Source: a virus
Taxonomy: Duplodnaviria; Heunggongvirae; Uroviricota; Caudoviricetes
Direction: 5' to 3' (one strand)
IMG/VR virus record: IMGVR_UViG_2531839180_000001
DNA: 33,339 bases
The notes beneath the pieces are model-generated. The model was given only the letters and a program-made list of their open reading frames with translations, did not search any database and was not told where the DNA came from. Positions 1-32,597 of this stretch are shown here, one piece after another (position 1 is the first letter of the stretch; every line of letters starts with the position of its first letter). A program made the position numbers and the translations under genes.

Positions 1-178
1 GTGACATCACCCCCCCCCGGATCATGGACGACTGGGGGCAGTAATCATGCCGGGTCTGGCTGGCTAACACCCCATTATAAGGGGTACGAATAAAGTAACG
101 GGGCCATGCTTACCTTAATAATCGATCTGTTAAACAGATAGATATTGATTTATCTATCGATTAAAACGATCAATACCA

Positions 179-5572: not shown

Positions 5573-6586
5573 ATGAACATGACACCAGAAGCACAAAAGC
5601 TGGTTAATCAGTACATCAGCGAACTGCAAAAAACATTCAGTGACTGCGGAAAATCAAGCGATCGTTTCTTTTCGCTGACCGAGCCACGCAGTATTGCTCT
5701 GCGTAAAGCCCTGCTGGAAAGCACGGAGTTTCTGAGTTTCATCACCTGCATGGACGTTCCGCACCCGCAGGGGCAGGTCGTCACCGTGGGAGAATCCACG
5801 CTGCGCACCGGTCGCGTGAAAAGCGGTCGTTTTGCTAAAGGTTCGGGCATCAAAGGCAACGAATTTAAACTCGTTGAAACTGATTCCTGCTGCGTGATCA
5901 CCTGGGAACAACTCGCCATCTGGGCGAATGCCGGCAGCCCGCAGGAATTTTTCAACCTGATGAACTCCGCCGCCGTCACCAACTTTGCGCTGGATATGCT
6001 GCGCATTGGCTTTAACGGTAAAACAGCAGCGGAAAACTCTGACCCGGAAAGTCACCCGAACGGCGAAGACGTCAACATCGGCTGGCATGAAATCGCCAAA
6101 AAATGGGGAGAACAGCCCGGCAACACCTCCCGTATTCTGACAGACGCCGTTACCCTGGGCGAAGGCGGCGATTATGTCGGTCTTGATGCCATGGCCTCAG
6201 ATCTGATCCGCACTTATATCCCGGCGCAATATCACAACGATCCTCGCCTTACTGTGCTGGTTGGCGCAGACCTTGTGGCTGCTGAAGAACTACGCCTCTA
6301 CAACAAAGAGGACAAGCCCACCGAAAAAGTGGCCGCACAGTTGCTGACGAAGAACATTGCGGGCCGCAAGGCCATCATTCCGCCGTTTATGCCGGGCAAA
6401 CGTATGGTGGTGACCATGCTGCCAAACCTGCAGATCCTGACGCTGAAAGGCTCCCGCCGCCGCAAGGCAGAAGATGTGGGCGATCGCAAACAGTTCGAAA
6501 ACTCATACTGGCGTTATGAGGGGTACGCCCTGGGCGATCCGGATTTATATGCTGCCGTGGATGAGTCTGCGGTCACCATCGCCTGA
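5573..6586 (+). CDS. major capsid protein (P2 gpN-like)
   Basis: 337 aa; shares motif blocks with P2 gpN as I recall it (AGFNGK, GGDYVGLDA, DPRLTVLVG). Confidence 0.85.
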   Translation: MNMTPEAQKLVNQYISELQKTFSDCGKSSDRFFSLTEPRSIALRKALLESTEFLSFITCMDVPHPQGQVVTVGESTLRTGRVKSGRFAKGSGIKGNEFKLVETDSCCVITWEQLAIWANAGSPQEFFNLMNSAAVTNFALDMLRIGFNGKTAAENSDPESHPNGEDVNIGWHEIAKKWGEQPGNTSRILTDAVTLGEGGDYVGLDAMASDLIRTYIPAQYHNDPRLTVLVGADLVAAEELRLYNKEDKPTEKVAAQLLTKNIAGRKAIIPPFMPGKRMVVTMLPNLQILTLKGSRRRKAEDVGDRKQFENSYWRYEGYALGDPDLYAAVDESAVTIA

Positions 6587-24387: not shown

Positions 24388-24528
24388 ATGTCGCAAAAAT
24401 CGCTTATAGCCATCACGTTCTGCGTGACGGCAATCCTCATCATCTGGATGCTGCACGGTTCGCTGTGCGAGATACGGATGAGATTCTGGGGAGCGGAGTT
24501 TGCGGCGTTCTTACAGTGTAAGCAGTAA
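24388..24528 (+). CDS. Hok/Gef-family type I toxin (46 aa)
   Basis: AAGGAG 9 nt upstream of ATG; MSQKSLIAITFCVTAILIIWMLHGSLCEIRMRFWGAEFAAFLQCKQ has an N-terminal TM helix and the SLCE(I/L) core of Hok proteins; below the ORF-track size cutoff. Confidence 0.7.
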   Translation: MSQKSLIAITFCVTAILIIWMLHGSLCEIRMRFWGAEFAAFLQCKQ

Positions 24529-24616
24529 GGAAACCGCGACGGGGGAGTAATCCCCCGTCAATCGGTTGCTAAGGTTGGCTGAAGTGGCACCCTATCTCAC
24601 AGACATGAACAACAAA

Positions 24617-24648
24617 CCCGCAGCGTAAAAACTGCGGGTTTTCTTTTT
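24617..24648 (+). terminator. rho-independent terminator downstream of the hok-like gene
   Basis: CCCGCAG / CTGCGGG stem followed by TTTTCTTTTT. Confidence 0.7.
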
Positions 24649-24694
24649 GTTGCCCTCACAAATGAGGGTGACACTATTCGTAAGCAATAGGCAT

Positions 24695-24740
24695 GACAGA
24701 TCGATGCAATAAATCCGATCGATAAAAACGATCGATTTGT
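24695..24740 (+). promoter_or_regulatory. cluster of three GATC (Dam) sites upstream of the com-methyltransferase operon
   Basis: GATC at 24699, 24717 and 24730 within about 35 bp, 50-80 bp upstream of the com start. Confidence 0.5.
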
Positions 24741-24780
24741 TATCATATCGGCAGCAGTAACCACACAAGAGGTGCCGCAA

Positions 24781-24978
24781 ATGACGCAAAATGTACGATG
24801 CAAAAATTGCAACAAACTACTTGCCCGCGCCTCATTTCACTACATTGAAATAAAATGTCCGCGCTGCAAAACACTTAACCAGATAACGAGAGCCATTGAG
24901 CACCCCACACACATGAGGAGTTATGACCGTGGGGATCGCAATCCAGCACCAACCAGCACATACACCGGAACACACTAA
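24781..24978 (+). CDS. com: Com-like zinc-finger translational activator
   Basis: VRCKNCNKLL...HYIEIKCPRCK closely matches phage Mu Com as I recall it; AAGAGG SD; ORF overlaps the methyltransferase start by 56 nt. Confidence 0.75.
   Translation: MTQNVRCKNCNKLLARASFHYIEIKCPRCKTLNQITRAIEHPTHMRSYDRGDRNPAPTSTYTGTH
24903..24934 (+). promoter_or_regulatory. hairpin sequestering the methyltransferase SD and start codon
   Basis: CCCCAC (24903-24908) pairs with GTGGGG (24929-24934); the loop holds GAGGAG and ATG 24923. Confidence 0.5.
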
Positions 24979-25729
24979 GGTTTATCAGACTGACAATGCC
25001 ACGCTCTGTCGTGGGAATGCGCTGGAAATATTGCCGCTGATTGAGCCAGAAAGCATTGATGCCTTAATCACTGACCCACCTTACAGTTCGGGTGCGACAC
25101 ACAAGGCCGGACGCACCAACCAGGGCAGCCATGCAAAATATCTGAACGGCGAGAACCTTCACCGCTTTGATGGGTTCGCGGGTGAAAACATGGACGCCCG
25201 TTCGTGGGCTTACTGGACACAATTATGGATGGCACAGGCACACCGCGCAGTCAGGCCGGGCGGTTATGCCCTGGTATTTACTGACTGGCGACAACTACCA
25301 GCTTTAACCGATGCGTTTCAGGCCAGTGGCTTTACATGGCGCGGCATCATTGCGTGGAACAAGGGGAGGGGGTCACGAACACCCCATACCGGGTATTTCC
25401 GGCATCAGTGCGAATACATTGTCTGGGGCAGCAAAGGCCATTTAGATAAATCGCCTTCGGGGCCGTTCGACGGCTGCATGACGTTCCCGGTTATCCCGTC
25501 AAAGAAAATGCACCCGACCGGAAAACCAGAAGAACTAATGGCAGAGCTGGTCAGAACTGCGAATAGTGGCGGAACAGTCCTTGATCCCTTTATGGGGTCA
25601 GGAACAACGGGTGTGGCTGCACTGAAAGCAGGGCGAAAATTTATTGGTATAGAAACCAGTGATCATTATTTTGAGGTAGCAGCGCAGCGGCTTCGGGGGA
25701 CTATTACCACAACCATTTCGGCTACATAA
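24923..25729 (+). CDS. DNA N6-adenine methyltransferase, beta-class (DPPY before FxGxG), orphan
   Basis: DPPY motif IV near the N-terminus and DPFMGSGTTG motif I near the C-terminus; no adjacent restriction endonuclease gene. Confidence 0.85.
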   Translation: MTVGIAIQHQPAHTPEHTKVYQTDNATLCRGNALEILPLIEPESIDALITDPPYSSGATHKAGRTNQGSHAKYLNGENLHRFDGFAGENMDARSWAYWTQLWMAQAHRAVRPGGYALVFTDWRQLPALTDAFQASGFTWRGIIAWNKGRGSRTPHTGYFRHQCEYIVWGSKGHLDKSPSGPFDGCMTFPVIPSKKMHPTGKPEELMAELVRTANSGGTVLDPFMGSGTTGVAALKAGRKFIGIETSDHYFEVAAQRLRGTITTTISAT

Positions 25730-26276: not shown

Positions 26277-26455
26277 TCAAAATGTGTGATGGAAATCTCA
26301 TAATTTTGTCACTTTTTGTCAACGAATCTTTTTTGTGAGAAATCGCAGGAAGAGGTGTTTTTTTACTTGAGGAATATCTCAAAGCGAGCCATATTTGATG
26401 AGATCGATAGTGACTAAATCGCTTCAGTTTCACAACTAACAGAATAAAAAAACGG

Positions 26456-26468
26456 CAGCTCAAGGCTG
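26456..26468. repeat. 13-bp target-site duplication, left copy (CAGCTCAAGGCTG)
   Basis: Identical 13-mer flanks both ends of the IS4-derived element. Confidence 0.8.
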
Positions 26469-27277
26469 TAATGCCAGTCAGTTAAGCAACTGACTGGCTC
26501 TTTTTCGGGGCTGTGGGGTATTTCCAGGGCCTCTCCTTTACCACTCTCGGGAAGGCCCTTTCCCTTCTTGTCGGTAATTTCACTGGTTGTCCCATACTTG
26601 CAAGATCGCGCATCAGCTCCGGTATACGTCCCGGTGAAGCGCATGGCGTCCGTCATCGACGTCAGCAGATGGCTGGTCAGTTCCATCTGGCAGACCATTT
26701 TGACCTGCGGGTAGAGCGCCGGGTTCTCGGCATGTGTCTGGCGGGGGAAGGCTGCATCGTTCTCTGGTGTATCCGGTGTGCGCCAGAACACACCATCGAT
26801 GGCCAGCAGGGTCAGGCCGCACCAGTGCGGATGCAGCGTGGCGTTATGCCAGAGCTGCGCTGTTTTCGTGAACACGCGTCGGACAGCCTCACTTCCCAGG
26901 CGCTGGCGGGCCTGAATAACGGCACTGGGGGCAACGAAGGGGCGATTGCCCGGCAGCATGATGTCCAGGCGATTCACAATCTGGTGAAGAGGTTCTTTAC
27001 GCTCAAGCGCCATGCCAACAATACACCAGACCATCATTTCGAGGGGAAGACGGCGCTTGCGTAGCGTTACAGTACCTGATTCGGCAAGGCAACGAGAGAT
27101 GAGTTCGGGGTCGAGGTAATCCCCCAGAGAAGTCAGTGGGTTACGCAGAGAATCGTAACGGGATACCAAATCAAGGGCCTGTCCAATGAGCATAAAAAAA
27201 TCCGGAAACGAGTGAGCGTTTCCGGATTCTTACACAGGCACTGGATCGGTCAACTGATCCTTAACTGATCGGCATTA
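26469..27277 (-). mobile_element. IS4 derivative with internal deletions (about 0.8 kb, non-autonomous)
   Basis: Imperfect terminal inverted repeats beginning TAATGCC at both ends; transposase N-terminal ~180 aa and last ~45 aa colinear with IS4 transposase as I recall it; middle missing. Confidence 0.8.
26482..27193 (-). pseudogene. IS4 transposase remnant (internally deleted, frame disrupted)
   Basis: Track ORF 26414..27193 is IS4-like to about residue 180 then out of frame; authentic C-terminus ...RVVKERPWKYPTAPKKSQSVA readable in another frame, ending at 26482. Confidence 0.75.
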
Positions 27278-27313: not shown

Positions 27314-28051
27314 TTATGTATTGCTGCTGTTTGCGGCGATGATTTTCGCTACTTTTTCAGCTTGCGCATTCATCTGCATCTGACGGTATGCATTTTCCAT
27401 CAGCGGCAGCGCATCACGCGTAGCCTGGGTATCCGGGTAGTCGCGCAACATGCCTTCTACGCGGTTAACGACGGCAACCCATGCGCCACGTTCTGTATAG
27501 TACTCGGCAACGGAGTATTCATATTTCGCCAGACGATCTTTCAGGAATACCAGACGTTTGGTGGCATCGGTGGTGTACTGACTGTTCGGATAGCCGCGCA
27601 CCAGTTTGGAAAAGTCACTAAACGCAGCTCGTGCATGTTGAGGATCGCGATCGCTACGATCGACGCCAAAGAACCCTTGCAGTGCACTGTCATCGAGCGC
27701 CATATTGGTCAGGCCACGCATGTACATGACATAATCGATATTCGGATGGGTCGGGTTAAGGCGAATAAAACGATCGATGGCAGCCTGTGCTAACGGCAAA
27801 TCGGCGTTTTTATAGTAGGCGTAGATGAGATCCAGCTGCACCTGCTGCGAATACGGACCAAACGGATAGCGATTATCTAACGCTTCCAGTTGCGTTATTG
27901 CCTGTCTCCAGTTACCGTCCTGCAGCTTTTGTTGTGCAGTCGCGTAAATTTCATTTGGCGGATTATCAGGTACTTCTTCCTTTGACCCCGAGCAACCCGC
28001 CAAAAACAGGCTTAGTGTGGCGGCTGCCACCAGATATTTCATGCGCGTCAT
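27314..28051 (-). CDS. bamD: outer membrane protein assembly factor BamD (lipoprotein)
   Basis: 245 aa; lipobox LAGC near the N-terminus; conserved divergent arrangement with rluD. Confidence 0.95.
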
Positions 28052-29894: not shown

Positions 29895-29956
29895 CCTAAA
29901 GAATCAAGACGATCCGGTACGCGTGATTTTCTTTTCACATTAATCTGGTCAATAAC

Positions 29957-29985
29957 CTTGAATAATTGAGGGATGACCTCATTTA
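29957..29985 (+). promoter_or_regulatory. sigma32 heat-shock promoter of clpB
   Basis: CTTGAATA, 13-bp spacer, CCTCATTTA fits the sigma32 consensus CTTGAAA / CCCCATNT. Confidence 0.55.
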
Positions 29986-30023
29986 ATCTCCAGTAGCAAC
30001 TTTGATCCGTTATGGGAGGAGTT

Positions 30024-32597
30024 ATGCGTCTGGATCGTCTTACTAATAAATTCCAGCTTGCTCTTGCCGATGCCCAATCACTTGCACTCGGGCACGACAA
30101 CCAATTCATCGAACCACTTCATTTAATGAGCGCCCTGCTGAATCAGGAAGGGGGTTCGGTTAGTCCTTTATTAACATCCGCCGGCATCAATGCTGGTCAG
30201 TTGCGCACAGATATCAATCAGGCATTAAATCGTTTACCGCAGGTTGAAGGCACTGGTGGCGATGTCCAGCCCTCACAGGATCTGGTGCGCGTTCTTAATC
30301 TTTGCGACAAGCTGGCGCAAAAACGTGGTGATAATTTTATCTCGTCAGAACTGTTCGTTCTGGCGGCACTTGAGTCTCGCGGCACGCTGGCCGACATCCT
30401 GAAAGCAGCAGGGGCGACCACCGCCAACATTACTCAAGCGATTGAACAAATGCGTGGAGGTGAAAGCGTGAACGATCAAGGAGCTGAAGACCAACGTCAG
30501 GCTTTGAAAAAATACACTATCGACCTCACCGAACGAGCCGAACAAGGCAAACTCGATCCGGTGATTGGCCGTGATGAAGAAATTCGCCGTACCATTCAGG
30601 TACTGCAACGTCGTACTAAAAATAACCCGGTGCTGATTGGTGAACCAGGCGTTGGTAAAACAGCCATCGTTGAAGGTCTGGCTCAGCGTATTATCAATGG
30701 CGAAGTGCCGGAAGGGTTGAAAGGCCGCCGCGTACTGGCGCTGGATATGGGCGCGCTGGTGGCTGGGGCGAAATATCGCGGTGAGTTTGAAGAGCGTTTA
30801 AAAGGCGTACTTAACGATCTTGCCAAACAGGAAGGCAACGTCATCCTGTTTATCGACGAATTACATACCATGGTCGGCGCGGGTAAAGCCGATGGCGCAA
30901 TGGATGCCGGCAACATGCTGAAACCGGCGCTGGCGCGTGGTGAATTGCACTGCGTAGGTGCCACGACACTGGACGAATATCGCCAGTACATCGAAAAAGA
31001 TGCTGCGCTGGAACGTCGTTTCCAGAAAGTGTTTGTTGCCGAGCCAACCGTGGAAGACACCATTGCTATTCTGCGTGGCCTGAAAGAACGTTATGAACTG
31101 CACCACCATGTGCAAATTACTGACCCGGCAATTGTTGCAGCGGCGACGTTGTCTCATCGCTACATTGCTGACCGTCAGCTGCCGGATAAAGCCATCGACC
31201 TAATCGATGAAGCAGCATCCAGCATTCGTATGCAGATTGACTCAAAACCAGAGGAACTCGACCGACTCGATCGTCGTATCATCCAGCTCAAACTGGAACA
31301 ACAGGCGCTAATGAAAGAGTCTGATGAAGCCAGTAAAAAACGCCTGGATATGCTCAACGAAGAACTGAGCGACAAAGAACGTCAGTATTCCGAGTTAGAA
31401 GAAGAGTGGAAAGCTGAGAAAGCATCGCTCTCTGGTACGCAGACCATTAAAGCGGAACTGGAGCAGGCGAAAATCGCCATTGAACAGGCTCGCCGTGTTG
31501 GGGATCTGGCGCGGATGTCTGAACTGCAATACGGCAAAATTCCAGAACTGGAAAAGCAACTGGAAGCCGCTACGCAGCTCGAAGGCAAAACTATGCGTCT
31601 CTTGCGTAATAAAGTGACCGACGCCGAAATTGCTGAAGTGCTGGCGCGTTGGACGGGGATTCCGGTTTCTCGCATGATGGAAAGCGAGCGCGAAAAACTG
31701 CTGCGTATGGAGCAAGAACTGCACCATCGCGTTATTGGTCAGAACGAAGCGGTTGATGCGGTATCTAACGCTATTCGTCGTAGCCGTGCGGGGCTTGCGG
31801 ATCCAAATCGCCCGATTGGTTCATTTCTGTTCCTTGGGCCAACTGGTGTGGGTAAAACTGAACTTTGTAAGGCGCTGGCGAACTTTATGTTCGATAGCGA
31901 CGAGGCGATGGTTCGTATCGATATGTCCGAATTTATGGAGAAACACTCGGTGTCTCGTCTGGTTGGTGCGCCTCCGGGATATGTCGGTTATGAAGAAGGT
32001 GGCTACCTGACCGAAGCGGTGCGTCGTCGTCCGTATTCCGTCATCCTGCTGGATGAAGTGGAAAAAGCGCATCCGGATGTCTTCAACATTCTGTTGCAGG
32101 TACTGGATGATGGGCGTCTGACTGACGGGCAGGGGAGAACGGTCGACTTCCGTAATACGGTTGTCATTATGACCTCTAACCTCGGTTCCGATTTGATTCA
32201 GGAACGCTTCGGTGAACTGGATTATGCGCACATGAAAGAGCTGGTACTCGGTGTGGTAAGCCATAACTTCCGTCCGGAATTCATTAACCGTATCGATGAA
32301 GTGGTGGTCTTCCATCCGCTGGGTGAACAGCACATTACGTCGATTGCGCAGATTCAGTTGAAACGTCTGTACAAACGTCTGGAAGAACGTGGTTATGAAA
32401 TCCACATTTCTGACGAGGCGCTGAAACTGCTGAGCGAGAACGGTTACGATCCGGTCTATGGTGCACGTCCTCTGAAACGTGCTATCCAGCAGCAGATCGA
32501 AAACCCGCTGGCACAGCAAATACTGTCTGGTGAATTGGTTCCGGGTAAAGTTATTCGCCTGGAAGTTAATGAAGACAGGATTGTCGCCGTCCAGTAA
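30024..32597 (+). CDS. clpB: chaperone disaggregase ClpB
   Basis: 857 aa from ATG 30024 (GGAGG RBS; track ORF starts 12 nt earlier); two AAA+ modules with GEPGVGKT and GPTGVGKT Walker A motifs. Confidence 0.97.

Follow-up and report, generated by a model that had tools for sequence, protein, structure and literature searches.

Switches governed jointly by Dam methylation and OxyR are the textbook case of heritable DNA-methylation bistability in enterobacteria. To our knowledge, only a handful of such loci have been documented, namely agn43, mom, gtr and opvAB. The agn43 (flu) gene has a single OxyR site that acts as a repressor site and whose methylation blocks binding, and the control of mom by Dam and OxyR is cited in the same source (PMC2909390). 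In the gtr operon of phage P22, the half-site that overlaps the -35 hexamer is the repressing one (PMC2909390). The half-sites of Salmonella opvAB lie upstream of the promoter, the last of them just upstream of the -35, and expression of the operon needs OxyR (PMC4856963). In both gtr and opvAB the GATC-bearing half-sites are of a kind in which a perfect OxyR consensus would destroy the GATC (PMC2909390; PMC4856963).

The two loci described here, both in one P2-like prophage, carry a similar 19-bp motif ahead of unrelated accessory genes. Judged from the sequence, each of these motifs is probably the strong half of a bipartite OxyR site that carries Dam GATCs and belongs to the agn43/mom/gtr type. 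The regulator is most likely the OxyR protein of the host and not a late activator of the phage.

Genomic setting of the two cassettes

The window, i.e. the whole stretch of 33,339 nucleotides that was analysed, is a segment of an Escherichia coli chromosome with most of a P2-like prophage (Peduoviridae; P88/Chuche-like), integrated between pheL and raiA. The parM-parR genes of the prophage end just before the first base of the window. They are followed, in this order, by the orf92-orf95 cassette, ogr, the portal and terminase genes, the head and tail genes, hok/gef, com and a DNA methyltransferase gene, behind which lie the host genes raiA, bamD, rluD, yfiH and clpB and a 16S rRNA gene. It follows from this gene order that each 19-mer precedes an accessory (“moron”) cassette in one of the two variable end regions of the prophage. 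The genes referred to below are as follows:

385-663, + strand: orf92, encoding a Cys-rich 92-aa protein (phrog_3941), the first gene of the cassette downstream of parMR
730-1017, + strand: orf95, encoding a 95-aa protein (phrog_33929), the second gene of the orf92 cassette
1330-1587, - strand: Ogr/Delta zinc-finger gene
24781-24978, + strand: com-like zinc-ribbon gene, 65 aa (Pfam PF10122, E=9.5e-12; phrog 'gpCom'; RefSeq annotation)
24923-25729, + strand: gene of a beta-class N6/N4 DNA methyltransferase, 268 aa (Pfam PF01555, E=2.5e-33)

Neither orf92 nor orf95 has a match in Pfam or NCBIfam, and orf95 gave one marginal PADLOC match (PDC-S02, E=0.0046). The orf92 cassette exists in two diverged forms: that of the window is referred to as class B, and the other, class C, is carried for example by ETEC H10407. 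The methyltransferase gene starts at 24923 within com, so that the two genes overlap by 56 nt, and the best PDB relatives of the enzyme are DpnA and CcrM-type enzymes. Its identification as M.EcoGII was considered and rejected, as that enzyme has 349 aa against 268 aa here (PMC5778455). One member of the methyltransferase cluster bears the automatic label 'DpnIIB'. Each of the two modules, the orf92 cassette and the com-methyltransferase pair, has been found in 173 of 5,426 complete E. coli genomes (about 3%). Carrier strains include ETEC H10407, with the module at NC_017633.1 2141264-2141358, O111 95NR1, with the module at CP021339.1 2053610-2053704, and ECL27977. Published text and supplements on 95NR1 were searched for non-methylated GATCs, and neither these nor a methylome listing was found.

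Architecture of the two sites

The earlier note on this DNA had paired ATCGATTAAAACGATCAAT at 156-174 with ATCGATAAAAACGATCGAT at 24718-24736 as a match at 17 of 19 positions, the former upstream of the 385-663 gene and the latter in the com promoter region. It had also described a 15-bp palindrome, ATCTGTTAAACAGAT, at 125-139 and a GATC over the candidate -10 of the first region. Re-reading of the sequence bears out each of these observations, the palindrome being built as 7+1+7 and the GATC at 204-207 overlapping TAGGAT at 201-206.

Bases 1-15 of the motif, ATCGAT[T/A]AAAACGAT, agree with the half-site of the OxyR dimer, ATAGnTnnnAnCTAT, in the variant that contains GATC, ATCG-N7-CGAT. Over the 10 positions of ATAGnTnnnAnCTAT, both window sites score 8/10 with T6 and A10 kept; validated GATC-bearing OxyR half-sites score 7-8/10 on the same scale. 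The two mismatches to the consensus, A3 to C and T13 to G, are the changes that create the GATC, and they are also present in the validated half-sites gtr A and C, agn43 and opvAB OBSB. For the searches described below, the half-site with a GATC-compatible relaxation was written as the pattern ATMGnTnnnAnCKAT, which was built from validated sites and not from the window. The elements of site 1, ahead of the orf92 cassette, are listed with relaxed and strict scores where these apply:

124-127, no strand: GATC-1, one base before the distal half-site (position -1, as in P22 gtr), invariant in classes B and C
125-139, no strand: distal OxyR-like half-site, ATCTGTTAAACAGAT, 8/10 relaxed and 6/10 strict
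156-170, no strand: proximal OxyR half-site, ATCGATTAAAACGAT, 10/10 relaxed and 8/10 strict
156-174, no strand: 19-mer of site 1, 17/19 to agn43 half-site 1, invariant in classes B and C
168-171, no strand: GATC-2, at +12 of the proximal half-site, as in agn43 half-site 1
179-206, + strand: predicted sigma-70 promoter of the orf92 cassette, TTGACA at 179-184, 16-nt spacer, TAGGAT at 201-206, 10/12 matches
204-207, no strand: GATC-3, overlapping the -10, conserved in class C as TAAGATCG

The palindrome had been taken for a separate feature; it is rather the distal half-site of the same operator as 156-174. The region 121-174 shows an overall two-fold symmetry with 24-nt arms, as expected for a site bound by a tetramer; one arm base differs in class C. 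The predicted operator (125-170) extends from about -88 to -43, given a predicted transcription start near 213, and stops 8 bp short of the predicted -35 (consensus scan). Its GATCs are located at 124 (-1 of the distal half-site), at 168 (+12 of the proximal half-site) and at 204 in the -10, and just one GATC lies inside a half-site.

Site 2, ahead of the com-methyltransferase pair, comprises the following elements:

24687-24701, no strand: distal OxyR-like half-site, ATAGGCATGACAGAT, 8/10 relaxed and 7/10 strict
24699-24702, no strand: GATC-1, at +12 of the distal half-site, invariant in diverged com promoters
24717-24720, no strand: GATC-2, at -1 of the proximal half-site, invariant in diverged com promoters
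24718-24732, no strand: proximal OxyR half-site, ATCGATAAAAACGAT, 10/10 relaxed and 8/10 strict, 13/15 to gtr OxyR(B)
24718-24736, no strand: 19-mer of site 2, 18/19 to the reverse complement of agn43 half-site 2
24719-24746, + strand: predicted com promoter, TCGATA, 16-nt spacer, TATCAT, with an extended -10 TG at 24738-24739
24730-24733, no strand: GATC-3, at +12 of the proximal half-site

The GATC pair of site 2 (24717 and 24730) is spaced 13 bp apart, as in gtr (spacing rule in PMC2909390). According to the consensus scan, the -35 and the spacer of the predicted com promoter lie inside the proximal half-site. At both loci the distal half-site starts exactly 31 bp upstream of the main one (16-bp gap, about three helical turns) and is weak, with 6-7/10 of the strict consensus; validated agn43 and gtr sites have a spacing of 32 bp.

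Since arrays found in IMG/VR resembled the agn43 regulatory region, the characterised Dam/OxyR regions were compared with the two sites. The agn43 region of E. coli K-12 reads ATAGAATAAAACGATCAAT...gATCGTTTATATCGATCgat; its half-site 1, ATAGAATAAAACGATCAAT, agrees with site 1 at 17 of 19 positions, and the reverse complement of its half-site 2, ATCGATATAAACGATCGAT, agrees with site 2 at 18 of 19. The mom region of phage Mu reads ...GATCGAATCAATTAAATCGATCGGTAATACAGATCGATTATG..., and its half-site ATCAATTAAATCGAT is identical to site 1 at 13 of 15 positions. The three half-sites of P22 gtr are ATCGGTAACAACGAT (A), ATAGATAAAAACTAT (B) and ATCGCTTGTATCGAT (C), of which ATAGATAAAAACTAT matches site 2 at 13 of 15. 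The placement of the GATCs agrees as well: relative to the proximal half-site, they are found at -1 and +12 at site 2, which corresponds to gtr A and C and to agn43 half-site 2, and at +12 alone at site 1, which corresponds to agn43 half-site 1. The proposal of OxyR as a candidate regulator thus gains support from the near identity of both sites to validated agn43, Mu mom and P22 gtr sites. A common operator, answering to one regulator and/or to Dam, is likewise supported in silico by GATC-bearing OxyR half-sites in the same bipartite layout at both loci.

Occurrence of the motif in the window

The bare 17/19 match does not exceed chance. In direct orientation, 8 pairs of 19-mers in the window agree at 17 or more positions, and the seven besides the present pair, all located in coding or rRNA sequence, seem to be accidental. 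Because the raw pair count is not significant, the argument is based on the OxyR model and comparative data. A motif search over the whole prophage, which had been suggested as a check, placed the motif at these two positions and not at many random sites. The degenerate 19-mer has two exact matches and one match with 3 mismatches in the window, against 0.01 expected, and no further match in the remaining 11 kb of the prophage. The third match (27760-27778, 3 mismatches) lies inside the coding sequence of the host gene bamD and is taken as chance. ATCGAT hexamers are concentrated in the same places, with five of the seven in the phage part falling in the two site regions.

Perfect matches to the independently built pattern ATMGnTnnnAnCKAT were found at exactly two places of the 33-kb window, 156-170 and 24718-24732, and nowhere in the part of the prophage outside it. 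In simulations, a mean of 0.08 perfect half-site matches per window was obtained, and two or more were present in 0.3%. OxyR is a LysR-type regulator that occupies its sites as a dimer of dimers. Paired half-sites were scanned by scoring all 15-mer pairs 31 or 32 bp apart at a threshold of 17/20, with 300 Markov simulations for comparison. Only 125+156 and 24687+24718 were returned from the window, each with 18/20, against a simulated mean of 0.01, the 31-bp option of the scan having been introduced after the data had been seen.

Conservation and distribution of the module

Comparison of the two forms of the orf92 cassette delimits the conserved elements. ETEC H10407 carries a diverged 89-aa homologue of orf92 behind the same promoter module. 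The proteins of classes B and C are clearly homologous yet diverged, and the 5' leader is barely alignable; no RNA family was found with Rfam in the long leader of the H10407 cassette. The following segments are invariant or nearly so between the classes: (i) 117-143, with the GATC, the distal half-site and ATAGAT; (ii) 151-174, with the proximal half-site and its GATC; (iii) the -35 hexamer and TTTTGTA[G/A]GATCG, i.e. the -10 with its GATC, which in class C reads TAAGAT. Variation is seen in the flanks and in the 7 bp separating the half-sites.

The com promoter also occurs in two diverged variants, with unrelated upstream sequence where a different gene has been inserted. Homology between them resumes at the ATAG of the distal half-site, with only 1-2 nt (AA) in common 5' of it. 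None of the three GATCs varies, and the only difference within the main half-site is at a non-consensus position. In both comparisons, orf92 classes B/C and the com variants, the boundaries of conservation coincide with the predicted OxyR sites.

A pattern scan of IMG/VR revealed 93 loci that fall into a few contexts: 33 belong to the diverged orf92 cassette and 4 to that of the window type, 28 to the com-methyltransferase promoter, 8 lie in lambdoid phages ahead of cor-like lipoprotein genes, and 6 and 5 make up two further array-like contexts, in addition to singletons. The 31-bp pairing of strong half-sites recurs in unrelated contexts among these loci, i.e. in the cor group and in classes D, F and I. 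The motif is also located ahead of a different com gene paired with a C5-methyltransferase gene (locus L011). Its presence at L011 and in the cor phages, which have no regulator in common with the P2-like phages, points to a host factor. When a 17-base pattern was searched in 596 Gb of genomes, the matches listed were mostly chance ones.

Predicted regulation

Both loci combine a half-site fit with a second half-site about three turns away and with at least two GATCs in or at the half-sites. By analogy with the described switches, we infer OxyR binding, methylation sensitivity and on/off switching at both loci. As in agn43, mom, gtr and opvAB, methylation of the site GATCs by Dam is predicted to block OxyR, and bound OxyR to block Dam. 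This mutual block would lead to a heritable, methylation-dependent choice between two expression states.

For com, an OxyR tetramer seated on 24687-24732 would occlude the promoter, and the unmethylated state would be the repressed one. OxyR should act as a repressor here because site 2 covers the predicted -35 and the spacer, as in agn43 and at the gtr half-site overlapping the -35. With all three GATCs methylated, OxyR would be excluded and the promoter would be ON, as in agn43 and mom. Com may then gate translation of the overlapping methyltransferase gene, in the manner of Mu com-mom. For the orf92 cassette, OxyR may activate or modulate transcription from upstream of the -35. The position of the site 1 operator resembles the OxyR-activated arrangements of opvAB and gtr AB, whereas the consensus -35 argues against dependence on an activator. 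Since the position of the operator with respect to the promoter is not the same at the two loci, the polarity of the response may differ as well.

Alternative explanations

The motifs might instead be operators for a regulator of the phage itself (Ogr, the C repressor, Cox or another), by which the cassettes would be tied into its lysogenic or late programme. The prophage has an Ogr/Delta gene (1330-1587, - strand) and several small DNA-binding proteins encoded in its early region, and the two modules co-occur in one prophage type, as exemplified by loci L050 and L071 on the same IMG/VR contig. The late promoters of P2, 186 and P4 are characterised by an Ogr box, a TGT-N12-ACA dyad centred near -55. 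No TGT-N12-ACA is present upstream of either predicted promoter, and the late activator, which the earlier note had also named as a candidate, finds no such Ogr-type box at either site. Moreover, no further copy of the motif is present in the prophage, not even in the promoters of the structural genes, and the paired motif is found in lambdoid cor phages, CP4-44 agn43, Mu and P22, which have no such phage regulator in common. A phage regulator is consequently very unlikely. The chance likeness of two AT-rich, ATCGAT-rich promoter regions without a common function is rated slightly lower still. It is favoured by the seven other 17/19 pairs of the window, by the internal repetition of the motif (ATCGAT...ATCGAT), which lowers its information content, and by the many unrelated phyla among the matches listed for the 17-base pattern in 596 Gb of genomes. 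Chance would have to account for just two perfect matches to an independently defined consensus, both in promoters and both with a partner at -31, for conservation boundaries that coincide with the predicted sites and for near identity to three validated sites.

The neighbourhood of parMR raises the question of whether site 1 is the centromere (parC) of the prophage ParM-ParR system and site 2 a second ParR site. The parMR genes end 100-130 bp upstream, the module always follows within about 100 bp of parR in classes B and C, and short repeats and dyads abound in the region. Upstream of parM, however, where parC is canonically located, there are two iteron-like repeats (GGGA...AATCCCGTAAA), the motif recurs at many loci free of parMR (agn43, Mu, P22, the cor loci and L011), and the module possesses its own strong, conserved, outward-facing promoter. 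The centromere reading, the least probable of all, was rejected on account of the iterons upstream of parM and of the wide occurrence of the motif without parMR. Finally, the regions might mainly serve as H-NS nucleation sites (TCGATAAATT-like) or as SeqA targets with phased GATCs, so that the acquired cassettes would be silenced without OxyR. Both regions are AT-rich, and TCGATAAAAA and TCGATTAAAA presumably resemble the H-NS high-affinity motif. Silencing of this kind, which we regard as improbable to the same degree as a phage regulator, does not account for the 4-N7-4 dyad, the conservation of T6 and A10, the pairing at 31 bp or the near identity to validated OxyR sites. H-NS or SeqA may coexist with OxyR control; at opvAB, SeqA and HU have been reported as ancillary factors (PMC4856963).

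Possible significance

Beyond the identity of the sites, a broader reading can be offered only tentatively and with more doubt than confidence: P2-like prophages of E. coli may carry two independent Dam/OxyR switches, one of them controlling a phase-variable, Com-gated methyltransferase, and a portable OxyR/GATC module may be attached to many morons. If so, the phase-variable methyltransferase would constitute a prophage-borne 'phasevarion' that gives rise to methylome heterogeneity. Should the enzyme methylate GATC, as the 'DpnIIB' label hints, it would lock its own operator ON. The portable module would drive bet-hedging expression of orf92/95, of cor-dependent superinfection exclusion and of other lipoprotein or membrane cassettes, thereby forming a host-wired regulon of switches over prophage accessory genes.

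Comparison with known Dam/OxyR systems

The kind of switch is already well known, and the two cassettes are predicted additions to it. No paper on Dam/OxyR control of a P2-like com-methyltransferase pair, the orf92 cassette or cor was found in the searchable literature, which is incomplete. If the predictions hold, two more prophage cassettes would join the list of Dam/OxyR loci, as would the lambdoid cor genes. As one of the two cassettes includes a DNA methyltransferase gene, an epigenetic switch would then control an epigenetic writer. Temperate phages would be seen to have repeatedly wired defence or modification accessory genes to one host sensor, and further loci could be sought by a simple signature, two ATCG-N7-CGAT half-sites spaced 31-32 bp apart that carry GATCs at -1 and +12.

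Salmonella opvAB, with its half-sites upstream of the -35, is a possible model for site 1. It differs in having four half-sites and four GATCs with alternating methylation patterns, and its last half-site is centred near -43, in contrast to a position near -50 at site 1, which has a consensus -35. The gtrABC operon of P22 is likewise a prophage moron under ATCG-N7-CGAT half-sites, with GATC pairs 13 bp apart at -1/+12. In contrast to the two half-sites of each window locus, gtr has three (A, B and C), so that OxyR can take either an activating or a repressing position there. A search at both loci for a third half-site at the offsets +31/32 or -62/64, which would correspond to such gtr-like alternative sites, found none.

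The com-mom operon of Mu resembles the second locus in its gene organization, a com zinc-ribbon gene overlapping a downstream DNA-modification gene (by 50 nt in Mu), and in the three GATCs of an upstream OxyR-type (MomR) region; the element ACAGATCGAT is common to both. There are also clear differences. The enzyme encoded here is an N6/N4 methyltransferase and not of the Mom type, the phage is P2-like instead of Mu-like, and the com promoter of the window is a reasonable extended -10 promoter without a recognisable C-activator site. In Mu, the OxyR site lies further upstream of the promoter, whereas site 2 of the window overlaps the predicted -35.

The agn43 (flu) gene of the cryptic prophage CP4-44 in E. 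coli K-12 has two half-sites about three helical turns apart, like the window sites, and three GATCs at +12, -1 and +12. It differs from the window loci in three respects: (i) both strong half-sites belong to one operator, whereas each window locus has one strong and one weak half-site; (ii) the spacing is 32 bp and not 31 bp; (iii) an autotransporter gene lies downstream in place of com-methyltransferase and orf92/95. With only two half-sites detectable per locus, both predicted switches look like one-site switches of the agn43 type rather than like gtr or opvAB.

Surroundings of the com operator

The predicted OxyR/Dam site in front of com and the DNA methyltransferase gene contains a 13-bp repeat in tandem (ATAAATCCGATCG and ATAAAAACGATCG, 24709-24734), and it is this repeat that sets the 13-bp phasing of the GATC sites at the operator. 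ATCGAT hexamers are located at 24700 and 24731; as they are 31 bp apart, OxyR could conceivably also bind in a second register that overlaps the -10 element. Two elements have been identified directly upstream of the operator:

24388-24528, toxin gene of the Hok/Gef family
24614-24641, strong bidirectional terminator hairpin

The Hok/Gef gene is a type I toxin-antitoxin module adjoining the methyltransferase cassette. In the IMG/VR locus L011, the same 19-mer (ATCGATAAAAACGATCGAT) is present in reversed orientation about 50 bp upstream of a different com-like gene, which is followed by a methyltransferase of the C5-cytosine type. The motif is thus associated with com genes regardless of the enzyme encoded behind them.

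The orf92 leader and the prophage parMR region

The leader of orf92, the first gene of the accessory cassette downstream of parM-parR, is about 170 nt long and carries the following element:

253-278, perfect hairpin/palindrome with a 10-bp stem, GCCCCAATAG-CGGTAA-CTATTGGGGC

This hairpin is kept in the diverged orf92 cassette (class C), where the loop alone differs. It includes ATAG-N6-CTAT, which is an OxyR dyad minus one base, and could act either as RNA or as a binding site for a protein.

In locus L005 (15700-15790, upstream of the prophage parM), the 76 bp that separate the replication gene A from parM contain two iteron-like repeats of the form GGGA(N8-9)AATCCCGTAAA. This segment is likely parC together with the promoter region of the ParMR system. 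It is unusual for a P2-like prophage, an integrated element, to carry such a system.

Insertion sequence fragments and host features

Positions 1-103 of the window match the outermost 100 bp of ISEc20 (IS110 family), on its 5' non-coding side, at 97% identity; the element is annotated in PPompW and in Stx phages. In locus L002 the ISEc20-like stretch extends about 26 bp further upstream (5975-6000). No transposase follows the stretch in the window, and homology to the window-type orf92 cassette (class B) begins directly after it, near base 105. The stretch is an isolated fragment of an IS end that separates parR from the orf92 module. Further features are located in the host part of the window:

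26414-27193, minus strand, ORF of 259 aa whose product has the N-terminal domain of IS4 transposases (PF13006, E=1.8e-33)
29905-30043, plus strand, RyfD sRNA (Rfam RF02768, 125 bits)

The ORF sits between raiA and bamD, an interval longer by about 820 bp in the window than in strain ECL27977. Apart from this, the strain and the window share 99.9% identity over bases 1-1700. The additional DNA looks like an IS4-family remnant. The RyfD match is an ordinary host feature of the yfiH-clpB intergenic region.

Related motifs in other phage loci

Among the IMG/VR loci, the strong half-site (the GATC-bearing predicted OxyR half-site of the 19-mer) is also located about 80-110 bp upstream of genes encoding Cor superinfection-exclusion lipoproteins (phrog_1119, E=7.8e-27) in L028, L060, L023, L040 and L043 (also L022, L068 and L070). 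A second half-site lies exactly 31 bp away, accompanied by two to four GATCs, and these cor genes are found where lambdoid tail operons end. The paired half-sites and GATCs lead to the prediction that cor is under Dam/OxyR control, on which no paper was found in a search of an incomplete literature library. In class F (L074, L081, L041, L057 and L080) and class D (L019, L021, L035, L038, L085 and L088), uncharacterised lipoprotein and membrane-protein cassettes are preceded by three to five OxyR-like half-sites, arrayed in a 31-bp register and with multiple GATCs. In their multi-site architecture, these arrays are more like the known Dam/OxyR switches gtr or opvAB.
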